DNA of 13,968 nt from a virus (taxonomy: Duplodnaviria; Heunggongvirae; Uroviricota; Caudoviricetes): positions 1 through 13,968 of the IMG/VR virus record IMGVR_UViG_2537562191_000040. The stretch is one strand, 5' to 3'. The notes beneath the pieces were generated by a model, which was not told where the DNA came from, made no database searches, and worked only from the letters and a program-made list of their open reading frames with translations. Every line of letters begins with the position of its first letter. Position 1 is the first letter of the stretch. Positions 6,666-13,968 of the stretch are shown in pieces. The position numbers and the translations under genes were made by a program.

Positions 6666-6955
6666 TGGTGAATTTACGTAAAGCGGCTAAAGGCCAGATA
6701 TGCCAGATCAGAATCCCTGGCTACTGCAATCACAATCCCGAAACCTCTGTGCTGGCGCATTACAGGCTGGCGGGAACGTGCGGAACAGCGATAAAGCCAC
6801 ACGATATGCAGGCAGCGATTGCCTGTAACTCATGCCACGATTTAATCGACGGGAGAGTAAAAACCAGCGATTACACCAAAGAAGAATTGCGCCTGATGCA
6901 TGCAGAAGGTGTTTTTCGCACACAAGAGATCTGGAGAAAGGACGGTTATTTATGA
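6665..6955 (+). CDS. YbcO-like (DUF1364) Cys-rich putative nuclease (96 aa)
   Basis: 96 aa with conserved cysteines (CQIRIPGYC ... CGT ... CNSCHD) and ...NPETSVLAH..., matching the DLP12 YbcO pattern as I recall it. Its stop overlaps the next gene's start (ATGA). Confidence 0.7.
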   Translation: MVNLRKAAKGQICQIRIPGYCNHNPETSVLAHYRLAGTCGTAIKPHDMQAAIACNSCHDLIDGRVKTSDYTKEELRLMHAEGVFRTQEIWRKDGYL

Positions 6956-7506
6956 TTTACCCAACGAACACAGGAAAAAGCGGAGAGCACCTTCGTCTCA
7001 CCACGCTGGAAAGTGTCTGGATTCAGGGGAAACTACGTATGTGGGGGCGCTGGTCGTATATTGGCGGCGGTAAGACGGGAAATATGTTCAACCAGTTGCT
7101 GACCTCTAAAAAGCTGACAAAAACGGCAATTAACGAGGCGCTCCGGAGGATGAAAAAAGCAGGTCTGGACAAACCTAAACTTGAGGCTTTTTTGCGGGAT
7201 ATGATCAACGGCAAGCAAAAAAGCTGGCTGGTGCATTGTACCGATTCAGAGGCGTTAATAATCGACAGGGTTATTGGTGAAGTACTGGCAGGTTATCCCG
7301 GGCTGCTCAATGTTCTGAGTCAGCGTTATGTGGGGCGGGGGATGACTAAGCGCAAAATGGCTGAACTGCTGAATGATGCACATCCGGAATGGAGTTTAAG
7401 AACCTGTGAAAGACGCATTGAGCATTGGCTAAAGGTGGCAGAATTTATTTTGTACAAACCAATGGTTATGGCTTTTGGTATAGAGAAAAAAGTTATTGCT
7501 TTTTGA
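6952..7506 (+). CDS. Putative late-gene antiterminator Q-like protein (184 aa)
   Basis: Assigned mainly from position: just upstream of the tR'-like hairpin, the tRNA genes and the lysis cassette. The start at ATG 6952 is chosen over the ORF-track start at 6832 because of the ATGA overlap with the upstream stop. Confidence 0.5.
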   Translation: MIYPTNTGKSGEHLRLTTLESVWIQGKLRMWGRWSYIGGGKTGNMFNQLLTSKKLTKTAINEALRRMKKAGLDKPKLEAFLRDMINGKQKSWLVHCTDSEALIIDRVIGEVLAGYPGLLNVLSQRYVGRGMTKRKMAELLNDAHPEWSLRTCERRIEHWLKVAEFILYKPMVMAFGIEKKVIAF

Positions 7507-7583
7507 CGTAAAAACTGCTTCAATTCCGGTAAGCTTCGCAAAGCTGTATCGCGAGGCGAACCAAACGCATGAACTTTACCAGA
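7503..7583 (+). promoter_or_regulatory. Putative late promoter (pR'-like) and Q-utilisation region
   Basis: A TTGACG -35-like hexamer overlaps the Q stop (7503-7508). I found no convincing -10. The call rests on position between Q and tR'. Confidence 0.25.
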
Positions 7584-7607
7584 ACCCGCCATTGAGCGGG
7601 TTTTTTA
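7584..7607 (+). terminator. Rho-independent terminator (tR'-like): ACCCGC-CATTGA-GCGGGT followed by TTTTTT
   Basis: GC-rich hairpin plus T-run read from the sequence, about 80 nt downstream of the Q stop and upstream of the tRNAs. Confidence 0.7.
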
Positions 7608-7645
7608 TTGCGGAATTAATTACGGACCGTTATTATTCTGCTCCC

Positions 7646-7721
7646 GGCCCTTTAGCTCAGTGGTGAGAGCGAGCGACTCATAATCGCCAGGTCGCTGGTT
7701 CAAATCCAGCAAGGGCCACCA
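7646..7721 (+). tRNA. ileZ: tRNA with CAU anticodon, most likely tRNA-Ile2 (ileZ-type, lysidine-modified) rather than tRNA-Met
   Basis: Cloverleaf folded by hand: acceptor GGCCCTT/AAGGGCC, D-stem GCTC/GAGC, anticodon loop CTCATAA, T-arm GCTGG-TTCAAAT-CCAGC, encoded CCA. Stx-type phages carry ileZ at this position. Confidence 0.8.
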
Positions 7722-7821
7722 TCACAAACCGCCATTAGCTTATCAGGAAGAGCAGACGACACCATAACAGGGTTGTTGGTGCGGGGGCGGGTCCCCGATG
7801 GCGGTCCATTATCGGTATTCT

Positions 7822-7898
7822 GCGTTGTTAGCTCAGCCGGACAGAGCAATTGCCTTCTAAGCAATCGGTCAGTGGTTCGACTCCACTACAACGCGCCA
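7822..7898 (+). tRNA. tRNA-Arg (anticodon UCU, reads AGA)
   Basis: Cloverleaf folded by hand: acceptor GCGTTGT/ACAACGC, D-stem GCTC/GAGC, anticodon stem ATTGC/GCAAT with loop CTTCTAA, T-arm AGTGG-TTCGACT-CCACT, encoded CCA. Confidence 0.85.
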
Positions 7899-7910
7899 CA
7901 CTTATTTTCC

Positions 7911-7936
7911 AGGCTCGCTTCGGCGGGCCTTTTTTG
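7911..7936 (+). terminator. Rho-independent terminator (8-bp stem AGGCTCGC/GCGGGCCT with one G-U pair, UUCG tetraloop, T5)
   Basis: Read directly from the sequence, immediately 3' of tRNA-Arg. Confidence 0.7.
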
Positions 7937-8067
7937 TATCTGCGCCACGCCCGGCGCATATCAACCACAGAGCCTTTCGGGGGTGAGCTTACGGAGTGGT
8001 CAGTGTGACTTTCTCTGTGGGCAGATCGCTCCCGGGCGTTGGCTCACCCACCCAAAGGAACGTCACG

Positions 8068-8499
8068 ATGTTTGGAATCTTCAAAAAGAAAACCCGCAGA
8101 GCGGCAGCGGAAATTAAAAAGTTTGAGAAACGCGATCTGGCACAGGCGGTGATTAACGCTGCATACCTGGTGGCCTATGCAGATGGTGAATGCGAGGCAT
8201 CCGAGAAAGCGAAGATCGAACAGGTCTTACGTAATCAGCCTGCGTTGTCTGCGTTTACCTCGGAAATTAATGCGATTAGCGCAACTATTATCGGTCAGCT
8301 GGATACCAATTTTAAAATTGGTCGTCGTGCCGCGTTACGCGAGATTGAGGATGTGAAACACGATACGCGTGAAGCGGAAGATGTGCTGGATGTGGCGGTG
8401 GCCATTGCGGAGGCAGACGGCGAAATTGAGCCGGAAGAGCGCAAGGTGCTGGAAGAGATTGCCGGTGTTCTGGGTCTTCGTCTGGAGAATCACCTGTGA
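8068..8499 (+). CDS. TerB-like (tellurite-resistance TerB domain) protein (143 aa)
   Basis: ATG at 8068 with an AAAGGAA Shine-Dalgarno sequence. Repeated AxADGE...E...L elements (AYLVAYADGECEASEKAKIEQVL, VAIAEADGEIEPEERKVLEEIAG) fit the TerB domain. It occupies the position where stxAB lie in Stx phages. Confidence 0.55.
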   Translation: MFGIFKKKTRRAAAEIKKFEKRDLAQAVINAAYLVAYADGECEASEKAKIEQVLRNQPALSAFTSEINAISATIIGQLDTNFKIGRRAALREIEDVKHDTREAEDVLDVAVAIAEADGEIEPEERKVLEEIAGVLGLRLENHL

Positions 8500-8663
8500 C
8501 GGTAAAACTGCGCCTGGCTGTGGCTGCACTCCTGCTGTTTCTGGTGGTGATGGTGGATTTCACCAGCAGAATCATGTCGGTGCTGGCGGATGGGGTGCTG
8601 GTCTGCGGCATTGTGGTATTGCTGTGGCCGGTGATAAAAAGAAACAGCCTGCATAATGCTTGA
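8496..8663 (+). CDS. Possible small membrane protein (55 aa, start GTG overlapping the TerB-like stop; alternative ATG at 8550)
   Basis: Strongly hydrophobic (LAVAALLLFLVVMV ... VLVCGIVVLLWPV). It is below the ORF-track cutoff and the start codon is uncertain. Confidence 0.3.
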   Translation: MTVKLRLAVAALLLFLVVMVDFTSRIMSVLADGVLVCGIVVLLWPVIKRNSLHNA

Positions 8664-8830
8664 TTTTTTTGTTTGCTGTTTATTAAAAACACTTCTGCAT
8701 GGTGAATCCCCCTGTGCGGAGGGGCGATCAGCAACCAGGTATATGGGATAATCGCGGATTCAGGTGCTGATACTGAATTCACCGGGAGGCACCCGGCACC
8801 ATGCAAGAAAAAGAATGTGCATGCAAACAT

Positions 8831-8854
8831 GCCCCTCTCCGGAGGGGCTTTTTT
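8831..8854 (+). terminator. Rho-independent terminator (perfect 7-bp stem GCCCCTC/GAGGGGC, loop TCCG, T6)
   Basis: Read directly from the sequence. It lies in a roughly 400-bp non-coding stretch and has no obvious upstream CDS. Confidence 0.6.
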
Positions 8855-8981
8855 ATGGGTAAAAAATGCCCGAATGGGTTCGGGCAATAGCATGAGATAC
8901 TGATATTGTTGTGTTGTTATCGTGTGGATTTTAACCAGGGTTTATCAGGCTGCGCAACTGCGTGGCCTTTTTTCATTTCTT

Positions 8982-9026
8982 GGGCTGTAGTCCCCGTGTG
9001 TCATTCAGGCTTCCGGACTACAGCCC
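8982..9026. repeat. Inverted repeat with 12-bp perfect arms (GGGCTGTAGTCC ... GGACTACAGCCC) around a 21-nt spacer
   Basis: Read directly from the sequence, about 45 bp upstream of the esterase start. Confidence 0.6.
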
Positions 9027-9069
9027 ACTCCATATCTGATTTAATACACTATCCCGGCCGGGAGGAATA

Positions 9070-10923
9070 ATGACATTTAAACATTATGATGTTGTCAGGG
9101 CGGCGTCGCCGTCAGACCTTGCGGAAAAGCTGACACACAAACTGAAAGAGGGCTGGCAGCCATACGGCGGACCGGTTGCCATTACGCCGTACACACTGAT
9201 GCAGGCGGTGGCTATTGAAGGAGAGCCACAGGTCGGCCCTTCATCTGAGCCGGATTGGTACTACGTCATCGTACTGGCCGGGCAGTCCAATGCCATGGCT
9301 TACGGTGAAGGGCTTCCGCTGCCGGATTCATACGATGCTCCGGATCCGCGCATTAAACAGCTGGCGCGCCGCAGTACAGTGACGCCGGGCGGGGCTGCCT
9401 GCAGATATAACGATATTATTCCGGCTGACCACTGTCTGCATGATGTGCAGGATATGAGTACGCTGAATCATCCGAGGGCTGACCTGAGCAAAGGGCAGTA
9501 CGGCTGTGTCGGCCAGGGTTTACATATTGCCAAAAAACTGCTCCCGTATATCCCGAATAACGCGGGGATCCTGCTGGTACCATGCTGTCGTGGTGGTTCG
9601 GCATTTACCCAGGGCGCGGAGGGGACATTCAGCGAGTCCACGGGGGCCAGTCAGGATTCGGCACGCTGGGGGGTGGGCAAGCCGTTATATCAGGATCTGA
9701 TTTCCCGCACAAAAGCGGCATTGCAGAAAAATCCCAAAAACGTTCTGCTGGCCGTCTGCTGGATGCAGGGTGAGTTTGACATGAGCGCCGCCACCCACGC
9801 ACAGCAACCTGCGCTGTTTACAGCCATGCTGACACAGTTTCGTGCTGACCTCTCCGTGTTTAACGCGCAGTGCCATGGTGGCAGCGCTGCAGATGTGCCG
9901 TGGATTTGTGGTGACACGACGTATTACTGGAAAAATACATACGCTACCCAATACGACACCGTGTACGGCGGGTATAAAAACAGGGAGAGTGAGGGCGTTT
10001 ATTTTGTGCCCTTCATGACAGACGGTAACGGCGTCAATACCGCCACTAACGCGCCGGCAGAAGATCCGGATATTCCGGCATCAGGATATTACGGTGCGGC
10101 ATCGAGAACGAATGGAAACCAGGTATCATCAAACCGCCCGACACATTTCAGTTCATGGGCGCGCAGGAGCATTATTCCGGATCGTCTGGCAACCGCTATT
10201 CTGAACGCAGCCGGGCGCACCTCCGCCTTCATCAGTGGTAAGGCACCGGAAATCAAACCCTCGCCCGGCGGCAACACGCCATCGGGTCCGTCTGCAGATA
10301 CGTCCGTTCGCACAATCTCCCTGCTGCCGGCAGCCGGAGAGGCTGCTGCGCAGGGCTGGAGCATTAAGGATGGCGGAATTCAGTTGTCAGATGGTGTATT
10401 TAAGATCACCAAGCAGAGCAATAAAACCTGGTCCCTGACGCATCCGGTGGATGACGCAATTACCCTGCTGACACAGGGCGGCAGACTGAACTGTAAGTTC
10501 CGCCTGTCAGGCGCACTGACCAACAATCAGTTCGGGCTGGGGATTTATCTGTATACGGATGCTCCCGTTCCTGATGGTGTGGCGATGACGGGTACCGGTA
10601 ATCCGTTCCTGATGTCGTACTTCACTCAGACCACTGACGGCAGAGTGAATCTGATGCATCACAGGAAAGCCGGAAACACGAAGCTGGGGGAGTTCGGCGA
10701 TTACGGTAACGACTGGCAGACGCTGGAGCTGGTGTTCACCGCCGGCAGTGCCACGGTTACTCCGAAACTGAATGGAGTGGCTGGCCCGGCATTCCAGGTT
10801 ATAAAAGACAGTCTGACACTGGGACTGAATGCGCTGACGCTGACGGATGTTACAAAAAATGCAGCGTATGGCGTTGAGATAGAAAGTCTGGTGCTGGAGA
10901 TAAATGCACCGGCATCATCATAA
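9070..10923 (+). CDS. Prophage NanS-p/YjhS-type sialate O-acetylesterase (SGNH/SASA hydrolase, 617 aa)
   Basis: GGAGG Shine-Dalgarno sequence. An N-terminal DUF1737-like region is followed by the SGNH motif [14 protein letters not shown]. The position between the Q/tRNA region and the holin is typical of Stx-type phages. Confidence 0.8.
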
Positions 10924-10997
10924 AAAGTGAGCCAGTCAAATGGAAGGTATCGTTAAACTCACCGGTAGTGTCAGTGGGTCGTCTGAGACGCCTGCAT

Positions 10998-11028
10998 GAG
11001 TTATCAGAGCCATCAGTAGTTAACTGGT
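10998..11028 (+). terminator. Rho-independent terminator (9-bp stem with one G-U pair, 7-nt loop, T6)
   Basis: AGCCATCAG-TAGTTAA-CTGGTGGCT followed by TTTTTT, between the esterase and the holin. Confidence 0.6.
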
Positions 11029-11072
11029 GGCTTTTTTATTGTTGTCAGCTTCCGGATAACGGGAGACGGGGT

Positions 11073-11288
11073 ATGTACCAGATGGAAAAAATCACAACAG
11101 GTGTGTCATACACCACGTCAGCGGTAGGGACGGGATACTGGTTACTGCAACTGCTGGACAAAGTCTCTCCGTCCCAGTGGGTGGCAATAGGTGTACTGGG
11201 GAGTCTGCTGTTTGGCCTGCTGACGTATCTGACTAACCTGTATTTCAAAATCAGGGAGGACCGCCGTAAGACGGCGCGGGGAGACTAA
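11073..11288 (+). CDS. S: Class II holin / pinholin (S21-like, 71 aa) with a dual-start motif (Met1...Met4: MYQMEK)
   Basis: 71 aa with two transmembrane helices and the motif [35 protein letters not shown], close to phage 21 S as I recall it. GGGAGACGGGG Shine-Dalgarno sequence. The true start lies inside ORF-track entry 10968..11288. Confidence 0.85.
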
Positions 11289-11292
11289 AGCG

Positions 11293-11637
11293 ATGAAGAA
11301 AAAATACGAACTGGTTGTTAAAGAGATAAATAATTACCCGGATAAGATTGCTGTTACTGTGGCACTTGAAATTGGCGGGCATCCGTCGTTGTTGTTGCCA
11401 CATGTGGCGATTAGTCTTGACCGTACTGAAGGTGCCACGCTGGAGTTTTACGAAGCTGAGGCGAAAAAGCAGGCGAAGCAGTTTTTCATGGATGTTGCTG
11501 CCGGGTTATGTGAAGGGGATGGTCCGTTACCGGAAAAGCGTCCCGTAATTTTAGAGGCGCAGGATGTGTTGATAACCTACAGAGGAAAACTACCGGGAAT
11601 AATTACGGGTTCTCTGAAGACTCCACCGCTGGCCTGA
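11293..11637 (+). CDS. Hypothetical protein (114 aa) inserted between holin and endolysin
   Basis: ORF with an upstream GGGAGA Shine-Dalgarno sequence. No recognisable motif, no lipobox, no transmembrane segment. Confidence 0.5.
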   Translation: MKKKYELVVKEINNYPDKIAVTVALEIGGHPSLLLPHVAISLDRTEGATLEFYEAEAKKQAKQFFMDVAAGLCEGDGPLPEKRPVILEAQDVLITYRGKLPGIITGSLKTPPLA

Positions 11638-11687
11638 AGACTTAACATATCCAGGGATTTGAAATCGATAAACCCTGATAAATATCC

Positions 11688-12221
11688 ATGAACGCAAAAA
11701 TCAGATACGGCCTGTCGGCTGCCGTTCTGGCGCTGATTGCCGCAGGTGCGCCTGCGCCTGAAATCCTCGACCAGTTTCTGGATGAAAAGGAAGGTAACCA
11801 CACCACAGCATACCGTGATGGTGCGGGTATCTGGACCATCTGCCGTGGAGCCACCCGGGTGGATGGTAAGCCTGTTATTCCTGGCATGAAGCTGTCGAAG
11901 GAAAAATGCGACCGGGTTAACGCCATTGAGCGTGATAAGGCGCTGGCATGGGTGGAGAAAAACATCAGAGTGCCACTGACCGAACCCCAGAAAGCGGGGA
12001 TTGCGTCATTCTGTCCGTACAACATTGGCCCCGGTAAGTGTTTCCCGTCGACGTTTTATAAACGAATTAATGCAGGAGATCGAAAAGGTGCCTGCGAAGC
12101 GATTCGCTGGTGGATTAAGGACGGTGGCAGAGACTGCCGTATTCGCTCAAATAACTGTTATGGTCAGGTATCCCGTCGTGACCAGGAGAGCGCGCTGGCG
12201 TGCTGGGGAATCGACAGATAA
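11688..12221 (+). CDS. R: SAR endolysin (T4-lysozyme-like, GH24; 177 aa)
   Basis: N-terminal signal-anchor-release segment (LSAAVLALIAAGA) followed by the catalytic E-x8-D-x5-T triad (EGNHTTAYRDGAGIWT). It is paired with a pinholin as in phage 21. Confidence 0.85.
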   Translation: MNAKIRYGLSAAVLALIAAGAPAPEILDQFLDEKEGNHTTAYRDGAGIWTICRGATRVDGKPVIPGMKLSKEKCDRVNAIERDKALAWVEKNIRVPLTEPQKAGIASFCPYNIGPGKCFPSTFYKRINAGDRKGACEAIRWWIKDGGRDCRIRSNNCYGQVSRRDQESALACWGIDR

Positions 12222-12330
12222 GCAGAATATTTTGCTGAAAAATGACGTTGGCCAGCGCGGGCGGATAACACGAAATCCTGCGAACTGGCAAAATGTAAGT
12301 GAATAAAGTTAGGCAGATTATTTCACGCAG

Positions 12331-12358
12331 AGGCACCGTAATGGTGCCTTTGTCATTT
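12331..12358 (+). terminator. Putative rho-independent terminator (7-bp stem AGGCACC/GGTGCCT, loop GTAAT, T-rich tail)
   Basis: Read from the sequence downstream of the endolysin gene. The T-run is interrupted. Confidence 0.45.
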
Positions 12359-12494
12359 CTGCGCTTCGCACAAGCGTAAATAAACCAAAGAACCTTTCAG
12401 GATGAGCCCTGGTGGATAACCGGCAGTGGTCTGGTTAACCCTCTTTGGGCTGGTTATTCCTGTGCGCAGGGTTCATCACTAAAAGGAATCAACC

Positions 12495-13034
12495 ATGAAA
12501 GAGATGATTTCTGTCGATCATGAAATATCCATGAGTAGTCTGGATTTTCTGAATAACATTATTAATCCAGCCCGGGCAGAAGCCGGAGAAGTCCCTCATG
12601 AACCGCGTAAGTTTCTTGCAAAAATTGAGGATGAGCTAGAGCTTGATGGAACCGGAAAAAAATTCCGGTTAAACAATAACCAGACAAGAACGGCATACTA
12701 TGATCTGGATTTTGACCAGATGATGCTCGTTGGCATGAGGGAGTCAAAGGCCGTTCGTCGTTCTGTGCTGGCAAGACTCAAAGCGATGCATGGTATTCAG
12801 ATCCCCCGGACTTTACCTGAGGCGTTGCGATTTGCGGCAAAACTGGCTGAACAGAAAGCAGTGCTGGAAAATCAACTGGCAATAGCAGCGCCGAAGGCTG
12901 AATTTGTTGATAACTATGTTGAAGCATCTGGTCTGATGGGATTCCGGGAAGTTGCTAAGTTACTCGGTATCAAAGAAACCGATTTCCGGCTGTTTGAACC
13001 GCCCCGGGTTTCCTGGAGAGTGTTTTATCTGTGA
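12495..13034 (+). pseudogene. Phage antirepressor-like protein (Rha-like N-terminal region plus KilA-C/Ant-like region), 3' end truncated by IS insertion
   Basis: AAAGGA Shine-Dalgarno sequence. Motifs YYDLDFDQMMLVGMRESKAVRRSV and FREVAKLLGIKETDF. From about 12995 the reading frame runs into the IS terminal repeat, so the last roughly 13 codons and the stop are IS-derived. Confidence 0.6.
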
Positions 13035-13768
13035 ACTCAGGCTGCCAGATCATCGTTTCCGATGGAAGCATAATAAGCTTTTTCTGCTTCTGCCGGAGGA
13101 GTATGGCCCAGCCTTCCCAGCAATCGTCGATTGTTATACCAGTCCACCCACGTTAGTGTGGCCAGTTCCACTTCTGCACGGTTTTTCCAGCTCTTACGGT
13201 GTATTACCTCCGCTTTGTAAAGACCATTGATGCTCTCAGCCATCGCGTTGTCATACGAGTCGCCTGTACTCCCTGTTGATGCCAGTAATCCGGCTTCTTT
13301 TAGTCGCTCCGTATAGGCCAGTGACACATACTGAGAGCCTTTATCGCTGTGATGGATGGTGCCAGACGGACGACGGGCCCACAACGCCTGCTCCAGCGCA
13401 TCCAGCACGAATGTCGTTTCCATAGACGATGAGACCCGCCACCCCACGATGTATCCGGCAAACACATCAATGATAAACGCCACATAGACGAAGCCCTGCC
13501 ATGTGCTGACGTAAGTAAAATCAGCCACCCACAGCTGGTCAGGTCGTTCTGCCACGAACTGACGGTTTACGCGGTCGCCTGCGGCAACGGCTTTCCGGCT
13601 GATGGTCGTACGGACCTTTTTACCCCGGAGAACACCGGCAAGTCCCATAACCGCCATGAGACGTGCCACTGTACATCTGGCCACCCTGATTCCTTCCCGT
13701 AACAACTGACGCCAGACTTTACGCACACCGTACACCTGATGATTTTCATCGTATACGCGCTGTATCAC
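12995..13768 (-). mobile_element. IS3-family (IS629/IS3411-like) element, 3' part only, inverted relative to the copy at 18-813
   Basis: Reverse complement matches positions about 43-813 in every segment I spot-checked, apart from the 1-bp G-run difference. Homology ends at 12995 (terminal ...TGAACC) and at about 13768, beyond which the sequence is unrelated to copy 1. Confidence 0.8.
13037..13768 (-). pseudogene. IS3-family transposase OrfB fragment (frame intact, N-terminal part and orfA missing)
   Basis: ORF-track protein 13037..13783 (248 aa). Only the first few residues are non-IS sequence. It carries the DDE-transposase region ending ...ASIGNDDLAA. Confidence 0.75.
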
Positions 13769-13803
13769 ACACGCCGGGCGCAATCCGTCTGTGCTGGCAC
13801 TGC

Positions 13804-13968
13804 GATAACCAGCTGCGCGATCAGTTCACGGAACGGCTGGAATCAATGGCAACGGATAACTGTACCCGCTGGGTGTTGTCTGTTGTGCGTCGGGATCTCG
13901 GTTTTGATGACAGTCACGTTGTGACAATGCCGGAACTGTGCTGGTGGCTGATTCGTAATGACCTGGCG
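13804..13968 (+). other. Unidentified partial ORF running off the window end (...NQLRDQFTERLESMATDNCTRWVLSVVRRDLGFDDSHVVTMPELCWWLIRNDLA)
   Basis: Open frame with no stop before the window edge, in a different frame from ORF-track entry 13739..13924. Identity unknown. Confidence 0.2.

Follow-up and report, generated by a model that had tools for sequence, protein, structure and literature searches.

A tciA–tciB gene pair in the stx slot of a stx-negative lambdoid prophage of enterohaemorrhagic Escherichia coli O111:H8

The slot that holds the toxin genes stxAB in Shiga toxin (Stx) phages is known, as a matter of textbook knowledge, to accept interchangeable cargo. This raises the question of what fills the slot in a related prophage that carries no toxin, how that cargo is expressed and what it might do. 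The DNA analysed here, hereafter the window, is a stretch of 13,968 nucleotides (nt) comprising positions 1 to 13,968 of the Caudoviricetes record IMGVR_UViG_2537562191_000040 of IMG/VR, and the locus in question, at 7646–8663, consists of two tRNA genes followed by a pair of genes, tciA and tciB, that encode a TerB-family protein and a small hydrophobic protein of the DUF3927 family. The locus represents the accessory (‘moron’) site in the late operon of a lambdoid prophage that is mosaic, lacks stx and belongs to enterohaemorrhagic E. coli (EHEC) O111:H8. The 1.7-kb segment 7400–9100 is 100% identical to many E. coli O111:H8 or O111 chromosomes, with at least 80% of it present in 326 complete genomes; strain 7-54 11A is 100% identical to the window across 22–13766, and most other O111 strains align from position 813. 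No open reading frame (ORF) for stxA or stxB was found in the window, and RefSeq annotates none in the region identical to it. In the explanation that we favour, the anatomy of the site is that of a Stx phage late region, tciAB is the cargo of the stx slot, its transcription would depend mainly on read-through mediated by the late antiterminator Q, and its products would form a membrane-associated pair; taken jointly, these propositions have a probability of roughly 0.8.

The equivalence with the stx slot can be followed at both ends of the cassette. On the left, homology between the window and phage 933W spans the putative tRNA promoter pT, ileZ, the argN slot, argO and the terminator behind it, and stops about 30 nt past this terminator; beyond that point lies stxA2 in 933W, and a hairpin leader of about 100 nt followed by tciA in the window. 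On the right, Stx1 phages are 86.7% identical to the window from 20 nt past the tciB stop codon to the esterase gene, and in these phages stx1AB is located immediately upstream of this shared flank, which consists of the small RNA (sRNA) genes and nanS-p. Given that both boundaries are aligned, the TerB/DUF3927 pair occupies the slot of stxAB, which bears out the proposal of an initial annotation, made from the sequence alone, that the locus holds an alternative cargo at the stx moron site. The gene order described there, namely a Q-like gene, a tR' hairpin, tRNA(CAU), tRNA-Arg(UCU), cargo, esterase, holin and endolysin, was recovered with every part in its place; in full, it also includes a 100-nt spacer between the tRNA genes and a terminator after tRNA-Arg(UCU), followed by the TerB-family gene, the 55-amino-acid (aa) DUF3927 gene and the NanS-p esterase gene. 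RefSeq annotates the identical region, in order, as DUF1367, DUF1364, DUF1133, tRNA-Ile, tRNA-Arg, ‘tellurite resistance TerB family protein’, ‘DUF3927 family protein’, SASA esterase, class II holin, YdfR, lysozyme and antirepressor.

The late region of 933W, annotated in AF125520 as pR'-tR'-pT-ileZ-argN-argO-stx2AB-L0105/nanS-p-S-R-ant-Rz, resembles that of the window in the order of its parts and, for the pT region, ileZ, argO and the post-argO terminator, at the nucleotide level; the esterase, the P21-type holin, the lysozyme and an ant gene downstream of R are common to both. The window differs in that it has the hairpin leader and tciA-tciB instead of stx2AB, a relic of argN, AgvB at the place of AsxR, and a Q gene and pR'/tR' segment of the DUF1133 type. 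The Q-like protein matches Pfam DUF1133 (8.7e-106) and Phage_antitermQ (33.7 bits versus a cut-off of 26) as well as phrog_753, ‘anti-termination protein Q-like’ (2.6e-80), and among the 25 records listed of the 40 matching phage records, there is no Stx phage with this type of Q. The description of the locus as ‘Stx-phage-type’ is accordingly accurate for the part from the tRNAs to the lysis genes but not for the Q gene.

The product of tciA is a member of the TerB family with a TerB-like helical fold and paired acidic motifs. It matches the Pfam TerB domain (PF05099) with an E value of 2.9e-16 (60.2 bits versus a cut-off of 24.4) and phrog_632 with 1.7e-69, and a profile of the TciA family aligns with the structure of Klebsiella TerB (2JXU) over positions 12–137 versus 18–144 (E 2.3e-15), so that the original TerB-like assignment withstood the homology searches. 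An AlphaFold2 (AF2) model of TciA is all-helical, with a predicted local distance difference test (pLDDT) score of 88; the top Foldseek matches of the model are the TerB-like structures 2H5N and 2OU3, with probabilities of 1.00 and 0.91, but with E values of only 0.011–0.56. Two acidic D-G-x5-E motifs (D39, G40, E46 and D117, G118, E124) are present, and all six residues are invariant in one alignment of homologues; in another, D39 and G40 are nearly invariant and the rest are invariant. The conserved N-terminus (MFGIFKKK) is hydrophobic and basic. The annotated start codon is the ATG at 8068; the longest ORF begins instead with a GTG at 7996.

The 55-aa hydrophobic ORF downstream, noted initially without a family, turned out to be a genuine member of DUF3927 and of phrog_1470, a family labelled ‘TciB-like’; PHROGs lists both the tciA and the tciB families as ‘moron’. 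TciB contains two hydrophobic segments, and its GTG start codon overlaps the tciA stop codon (GTGA). The pairing is highly consistent: a TciB-like small hydrophobic ORF is located 3' of the TerB gene in 125 of 129, 80 of 80 and 5 of 5 loci of three enterobacterial clusters. An ORF with a DF[TS]S motif follows TerB in the distant clusters 9, 12 and 13 as well, and the extended motif DF[TS]S[RK][IVL]LS is found in the small hydrophobic ORF after TerB even where TerB itself is 35–45% identical. Alleles of tciA separated by a dS of 0.37–0.66 differ by 1–6 nonsynonymous changes (dN/dS 0.00–0.04), and the one comparable pair of tciB alleles gives a dN/dS of 0.17. Judged by these substitution patterns, tciAB are functional genes under strong purifying selection. 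Two database entries, P0004 (197 aa, E. coli PA11) and P0066, join TerB to DUF3927 in a single ORF via read-through or a frameshift. A leader match labelled ‘DUF3927 domain protein’ in non-EHEC strains (H77) was discarded as a pseudogene fragment in an island rich in insertion sequences (IS).

The tciA/tciB pair was reportedly first named in phage P1, in 2004. The P1 proteins (AF234172) are 43% (TciA) and 50% (TciB) identical to those of the window, and in P1, too, tciA and tciB are adjacent, with stop and start codons abutting or overlapping, and lie amid phage tRNA genes including tRNA-Ile2(CAU); the window thus contains the P1-type module, a TerB gene directly followed by a DUF3927 gene. 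P1 differs in having a third small gene, tciC, and in being a phage-plasmid with its tci cluster in the C1-controlled early/ban region rather than in a Q-dependent late operon. Its annotation reads ‘tellurite or colicin resistance or inhibition of cell division (by homology)’, and in both P1 and the window, function is assigned by homology only. The other relative is TerB of the terZABCDE(F) operon (Klebsiella, 2JXU), which resembles TciA in the near full-length profile match, the helical fold and the two D-G-x5-E motifs. PMC11003894, citing Turkovicova 2016, reports TerB to partner the integral membrane protein TerC; in the window, the partner is the 55-aa DUF3927 peptide, not TerC, and the context is a phage rather than a ter island.

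Three components of a lambdoid Q-dependent late operon are present around the pair, namely a Q-family gene upstream, terminators and a lysis cassette downstream. Plus-strand terminators were identified at 7581–7609, 7911–7936, 8831–8854 and 8947–8974, the first two of which precede the cassette; the one at 7581–7609 was derived from the RNA fold of 7530–7615 and was omitted by a simple terminator scan. A consensus scan for sigma-70-like promoters lists no plus-strand site in 7400–9100, the leader included. Given a cassette without a recognisable promoter and with at least two plus-strand terminators upstream, we infer Q-dependent expression: after induction, Q-modified RNA polymerase would read through from pR', and transcription of tciAB would proceed mainly in this manner. 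Q-dependent read-through from pR' is established for stx2 in 933W. At the protein level, TciA, as a cytoplasmic helical protein, and TciB, as a hairpin protein, would associate at the inner membrane as a peripheral and an integral partner, respectively, in analogy to TerB-TerC, and this pair would condition the envelope or the ion state of the cell in late lytic growth.

Several points count against this explanation. Neither a pR' nor a Q-utilisation site (qut) was recognised for the DUF1133-type Q: the scan lists no plus-strand promoter in 7507–7580, where inspection by eye yields weak candidates only (a -35 element TTGCTT and a TG-extended -10 element TTCAAT). The conserved leader could hide a non-consensus promoter, and the prophage, flanked and cut by IS1203, may be defective, rearranged or not inducible. 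Finally, Q control is proposed from synteny, the interaction of TciA with TciB and their membrane location are proposed from gene adjacency and hydrophobicity, and our survey of the literature on TciA, TciB and DUF3927 found nothing functional.

The leader deserves separate consideration. This 132-nt segment always accompanies tciA whatever its upstream context, and a match to it is present upstream of TerB in 80 of 80 close loci, mostly at 98–100% identity and in some cases at 83–88%. Its fold energy is -56.5 kcal/mol (z = -2.26), and the consensus structure is kept among homologues, with one compensatory pair, in one lineage, and several one-sided changes. The hairpin was rejected as a conserved RNA element, a single compensatory pair being too weak a signal; it could be a processing site, for example for RNase III, or a regulatory element. 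A dedicated tciAB promoter was rejected as well, the consensus scan being negative in the leader and inspection by eye yielding only 3/6 hexamers.

The novelty implied by the initial annotation is not supported, for the arrangement is widespread and hundreds of genomes carry it in annotated form. DNA comprising leader, TerB and DUF3927 genes is present in 1157 of 5426 complete E. coli genomes (21%), 790 of which hold at least 80% of it, and a positive genome contains a median of 4 and a maximum of 10 such places. Among deposited phage genomes, the cassette is found in JLK-2012 (where the genes are named tciA and tciB), PPyecE_EH1910 (‘TciA/TerB-like’) and Evi. TerB homologues occur in 130 phage records, including Erwinia jumbo phages, P1-like phage-plasmids and Klebsiella, Vibrio and Pseudomonas phages, and homologues are found in Erwinia jumbo phages of about 240 kb and in Salmonella, Shigella and Escherichia phages of about 70 kb. 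In Klebsiella phages, the leader and tciAB directly follow the same type of Q, and overall they are found behind at least five upstream contexts (three tRNAs, two tRNAs, Asn-(Thr)-Gly, Met-Lys-Arg and no tRNA). The locus is already known in several respects: it is annotated in genomes, its families are classed as ‘moron’ in PHROGs, P1 has a tciA/tciB homologue and the insertion site was described in 2014.

The pair adjoins phage tRNA genes in lambdoid, P1-like and Erwinia jumbo (ChrisDB) phages, in at least six tRNA contexts altogether and at least five in P1-like elements, and a tRNA gene is located within 1 kb of tciAB in 75 of 129, 56 of 80 and 5 of 5 loci of the enterobacterial clusters. 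In the distant clusters of Pseudomonas- and Vibrio-type relatives, this is the case in 1 of 20 loci, for which reason a universal adjacency reflecting a functional link was rejected; the adjacency probably reflects shared accessory hotspots.

The alternative that best survives this evidence, possible although in our estimate clearly the less probable, is that tciAB is a lysogenic-conversion cassette that benefits the host, as do bor, lom or the Fur-regulated stx1, and is expressed in the uninduced lysogen from a promoter of its own in the leader or by read-through from pT rather than as a late function under Q. The adjoining sRNAs are expressed in lysogens (PMC4104026), the leader always accompanies the gene, a terminator shields the cassette from upstream transcription, and many EHEC genomes hold 4–10 matching places, IS-disrupted prophages included, under strong purifying selection. 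Opposing this alternative, the scan detects no sigma-70-like promoter in 7937–8067, and the cassette lies within the late operon in every lambdoid context seen. Moreover, homologues are present in the 240-kb Erwinia jumbo phages, which we take to be virulent and for which conversion would be meaningless. These homologues favour a role in lytic growth over pure lysogenic conversion, and a lytic-cycle role of tciAB is plausible on this comparative evidence.

Two more specific readings are both doubtful, and to about the same degree. Within the favoured explanation, TciA and TciB might constitute a self-sufficient phage membrane module that operates without a ter operon in late lytic growth, for example in lysis timing, ion or metal balance, or exclusion. 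Alternatively, tciAB might be a defence, exclusion or toxin module, in which TciB would be a membrane-depolarising effector, similar to a holin or a type I toxin, and TciA would restrain or trigger it; the outcome would be superinfection exclusion, abortive infection, or resistance to colicins or phages resembling the ter Phi and PacB phenotypes. The small size of TciB (55 aa), with its two hydrophobic segments, would suit such an effector, and the GTGA overlap is consistent with translational coupling; the site is a known cargo hotspot (PMC4104026), and ter clusters are reported to be linked to phage inhibition and colicin resistance (PMC8123226). The PADLOC models, however, give no significant match for either protein (the best match of TciA is PDC-S48, with an E value of 0.0035 over 35 residues; TciB has none), the pair also occurs outside prophages, for instance in the genomes of large Erwinia and Pseudomonas phages, and there is no reported phenotype.

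The database name notwithstanding, tellurite resistance is a very unlikely function of tciAB as such because no other ter gene is present: TciA does share a family with the TerB of the ter operon, but terC, terD, terE and terZ are absent from the window and from the annotated identical region, the smallest resistance-conferring ter construct named in PMC11003894 is terBCDEF, not terB alone, and the P1 annotation is hedged as ‘by homology’. Least credible of all is that the prophage is defective and that its cargo and unusual tRNA spacing are mere debris in decay, a reading that the flanking IS1203 copies, the interrupted ant gene and the dead argN might suggest but that is contradicted for tciAB by the dN/dS of tciA (0.00–0.04), by both ORFs being intact and identical in hundreds of genomes and by the presence of the cassette in the three complete deposited phages named above; it holds for the argN relic only.

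Table 1 Features of the late region in the window, with the evidence for each.
Feature	Position	Strand	Evidence
Q-like late antiterminator gene (DUF1133 type)	6952–7506	+	Pfam; phrog_753; RefSeq CDS with the same coordinates
tR'-like intrinsic terminator	7581–7609	+	GC-rich 9-bp hairpin (7581–7604) and U tract
Homologue of the 933W putative tRNA promoter pT	7608–7636	+	-35 TTGCGG, 17-nt spacer, -10 TATTAT
tRNA-Ile2 (anticodon CAU; ileZ type)	7646–7721	+	ARAGORN; Rfam 72.5 bits; PGAP tRNA-Ile
argN relic (tRNA-Arg UCG)	7729–7808	+	Alignment to Nil3 and 933W argN; fold
tRNA-Arg (UCU; argO type)	7822–7898	+	ARAGORN; Rfam 67.3 bits; aligns to 933W argO
Intrinsic terminator closing the tRNA unit	7911–7936	+	Terminator scan; fold; 933W alignment
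Conserved tciA 5' leader, long imperfect hairpin at about 7970–8045	7937–8067	+	Fold; homologue comparison
tciA, TerB-family protein, 143 aa	8068–8499	+	Pfam TerB; phrog_632; 2JXU
tciB, DUF3927 small hydrophobic protein, 55 aa	8496–8663	+	Pfam DUF3927 4.3e-17; phrog_1470 4e-30
STnc100-family sRNA gene (PasD-related)	8668–8860	+	Rfam RF02076 145.8 bits (gathering 47)
AgvB anti-sRNA gene (GcvB sponge)	8861–8922	-	Rfam RF02702 96.5 bits (gathering 56)
Further intrinsic terminator ahead of the esterase gene	8947–8974	+	Scan: 9-bp stem and T run
NanS-p-type sialate O-acetylesterase (DUF1737, SASA, DUF6645)	9070–10923	+	Pfam
Lysis cassette	11073–12221	+	Pfam; RefSeq
P21-type holin	11073–11288	+	Pfam Phage_holin_2_1 1.7e-32
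DUF1327/YdfR	11293–11637	+	Pfam DUF1327 7.4e-43
Lysozyme	11688–12221	+	Pfam Phage_lysozyme 1.4e-24

Upstream of the cassette, the tRNA with the CAU anticodon is tRNA-Ile2 and not tRNA-Met because it matches the annotated ileZ of phage Nil3 (76/76 identical) and ileX of E. coli K-12 (69/76, with the same anticodon stem-loop). A third tRNA was detected neither by ARAGORN in the window nor with the Rfam tRNA model at E ≤ 10 in the 1.7-kb segment or in the 100-nt spacer alone, and only Ile2 and Arg(UCU) remain of the three functional tRNAs, Ile2(CAU)/Arg(UCG)/Arg(UCU), of the Stx-type unit. The initial count of two tRNAs therefore stands, but the spacer between them, said to contain no cloverleaf, is a relic of argN that keeps three arms. 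In a set of 80 viral contigs whose TerB is at least 96% identical to that of the window, all three tRNAs occur in 33, two in 26, Asn-(Thr)-Gly in 4 and none in 15; given that the same TerB follows the complete ileZ-argN-argO in 33 of these 80 close loci, there is no link between the cargo and the possession of only two tRNAs. By homology to 933W, the tRNA unit probably has its own promoter and its own terminator. The predicted pT homologue aligns to the 933W pT annotation save for a few substitutions, although it falls under the -35 criterion of the promoter scan, and the homologue of the 7911–7936 terminator is annotated in 933W as ‘terminator upstream of the stx genes’. The unit may be transcribed independently of Q, with transcription ending at this terminator.

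The 100-nt spacer matches argN of Nil3 and 933W at both ends and retains the acceptor strands, the D arm, the T stem and the CCA-proximal end; an unrelated hairpin substitutes for the anticodon arm, and the T loop is mutated to GCGGGT. Three of the four cloverleaf arms persist in the RNA fold. Across about 230 related loci, the middle tRNA slot is filled by an intact tRNA-Arg(UCG), a tRNA-Lys(UUU), the relic or an 80-nt form that resembles the Lys-type gene minus its anticodon loop. The anticodon region of this slot has been lost in at least two different ways, in the 100-nt and the 80-nt forms. Of 5426 complete E. coli genomes, 1725 contain the relic spacer, which is unannotated in all of the matches listed. 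Its variants include slippage in a G run and uncompensated substitutions, and in a sub-variant from one sub-lineage the canonical T loop is still present. This pattern fits a pseudogene, and the alternative of a functional tRNA-like RNA was rejected on account of the homopolymer slippage, the uncompensated changes and the canonical T loop in that sub-lineage. On a weaker reading, the argN-derived element, which about one-third of the complete E. coli genomes contain, might owe its retention to a role as a structured RNA that does not decode, for example a processing spacer or decoy.

Related loci show other arrangements of the same parts. In commensal and extraintestinal pathogenic E. coli (ExPEC) (L239–L241), the unit of tRNA-Ile, relic and tRNA-Arg precedes an unrelated ORF of 118 aa and a DUF3927 gene of which only the 3' half remains, an arrangement that looks like the footprint of a cargo replacement. 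In three loci (L025, L031 and L072) and about 15 others, an additional cassette, roughly 600 bp long and containing two ORFs of about 70 aa, is located between the argO terminator and the tciA leader, bracketed by the repeated junction ‘terminator + TTTTTTGTATC[T/C]GCG’. The repetition suggests that cassettes are exchanged at this terminator junction.

Between tciB and the esterase gene lie two convergent sRNA genes on which the initial annotation was silent. The STnc100-family gene has its own terminator (8831–8854, from the terminator scan). The AgvB gene, convergent with it, is identical to the Rfam consensus at 62 of 62 positions, and its score, its own minus-strand terminator (8886–8867) and its position at the moron site, convergent with a plus-strand sRNA gene, identify it as a member of that family. 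In the Sakai prophages, sRNA genes in convergent pairs have been described 3' of pR', at ‘the moron insertion site’, and AgvB has been shown to antagonise GcvB (Tree et al. 2014, PMC4104026); a recent preprint relates STnc100 to PasD and places TerB (PF05099) among the conserved neighbours of PasA/PasC (Zhu, Shabalina, Storz 2026, 10.64898/2026.05.13.724894). The sRNA pair of the window resembles the AsxR/AgvB, PasD/STnc100 and PasA/PasC loci in being convergent and in its location between the cargo, on the 5' side, and the esterase gene, on the 3' side. The subject of the papers on AsxR/AgvB and PasA/PasC is the sRNAs, which are the experimentally studied part of the site, and the function of TerB/DUF3927 is not addressed in them. 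The terminator at 8947–8974, between AgvB and the esterase start, hints at a further short transcript or a nanS-p leader attenuator. The esterase, a ‘SASA family carbohydrate esterase’ in RefSeq, matches yjhS/L0105 of Stx phages.

Farther out, two copies of IS1203 (IS3 family) in inverted orientation, at 42–813 and 12994–13766, flank 12.2 kb of prophage, and the right copy interrupts the antirepressor (KilAC) gene. Among the matches listed, the left copy is found only in strain 7-54 11A, the other 11 aligning from position 813. At 2067–5566, a plus-strand gene for a C5 DNA cytosine methyltransferase is oriented towards a pair of genes that both lie on the minus strand and encode a Methyltransf_35 ‘putative O-methyltransferase’ (330 aa) and a GHKL-type HATPase_c_3 protein (463 aa). 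The PADLOC models yield no match for either gene of this pair; this part of the nin region may represent a so far uncharacterised island for modification or defence.

The locus confirms the stx slot of lambdoid prophages as a cassette site with exchangeable cargo, among the commonest of which is tciAB, often present in multiple copies in EHEC. The automated name ‘tellurite resistance protein’ is likely to be misleading for tciA, and the widespread, unannotated dead argN means that counts of ‘phage tRNAs’ at this locus vary between prophages for a trivial reason. If the doubtful proposal of a self-sufficient TciA-TciB membrane module is true, such a module would have been selected repeatedly, at the stx hotspot and beside tRNA arrays, in lambdoid, P1-like and jumbo phages.

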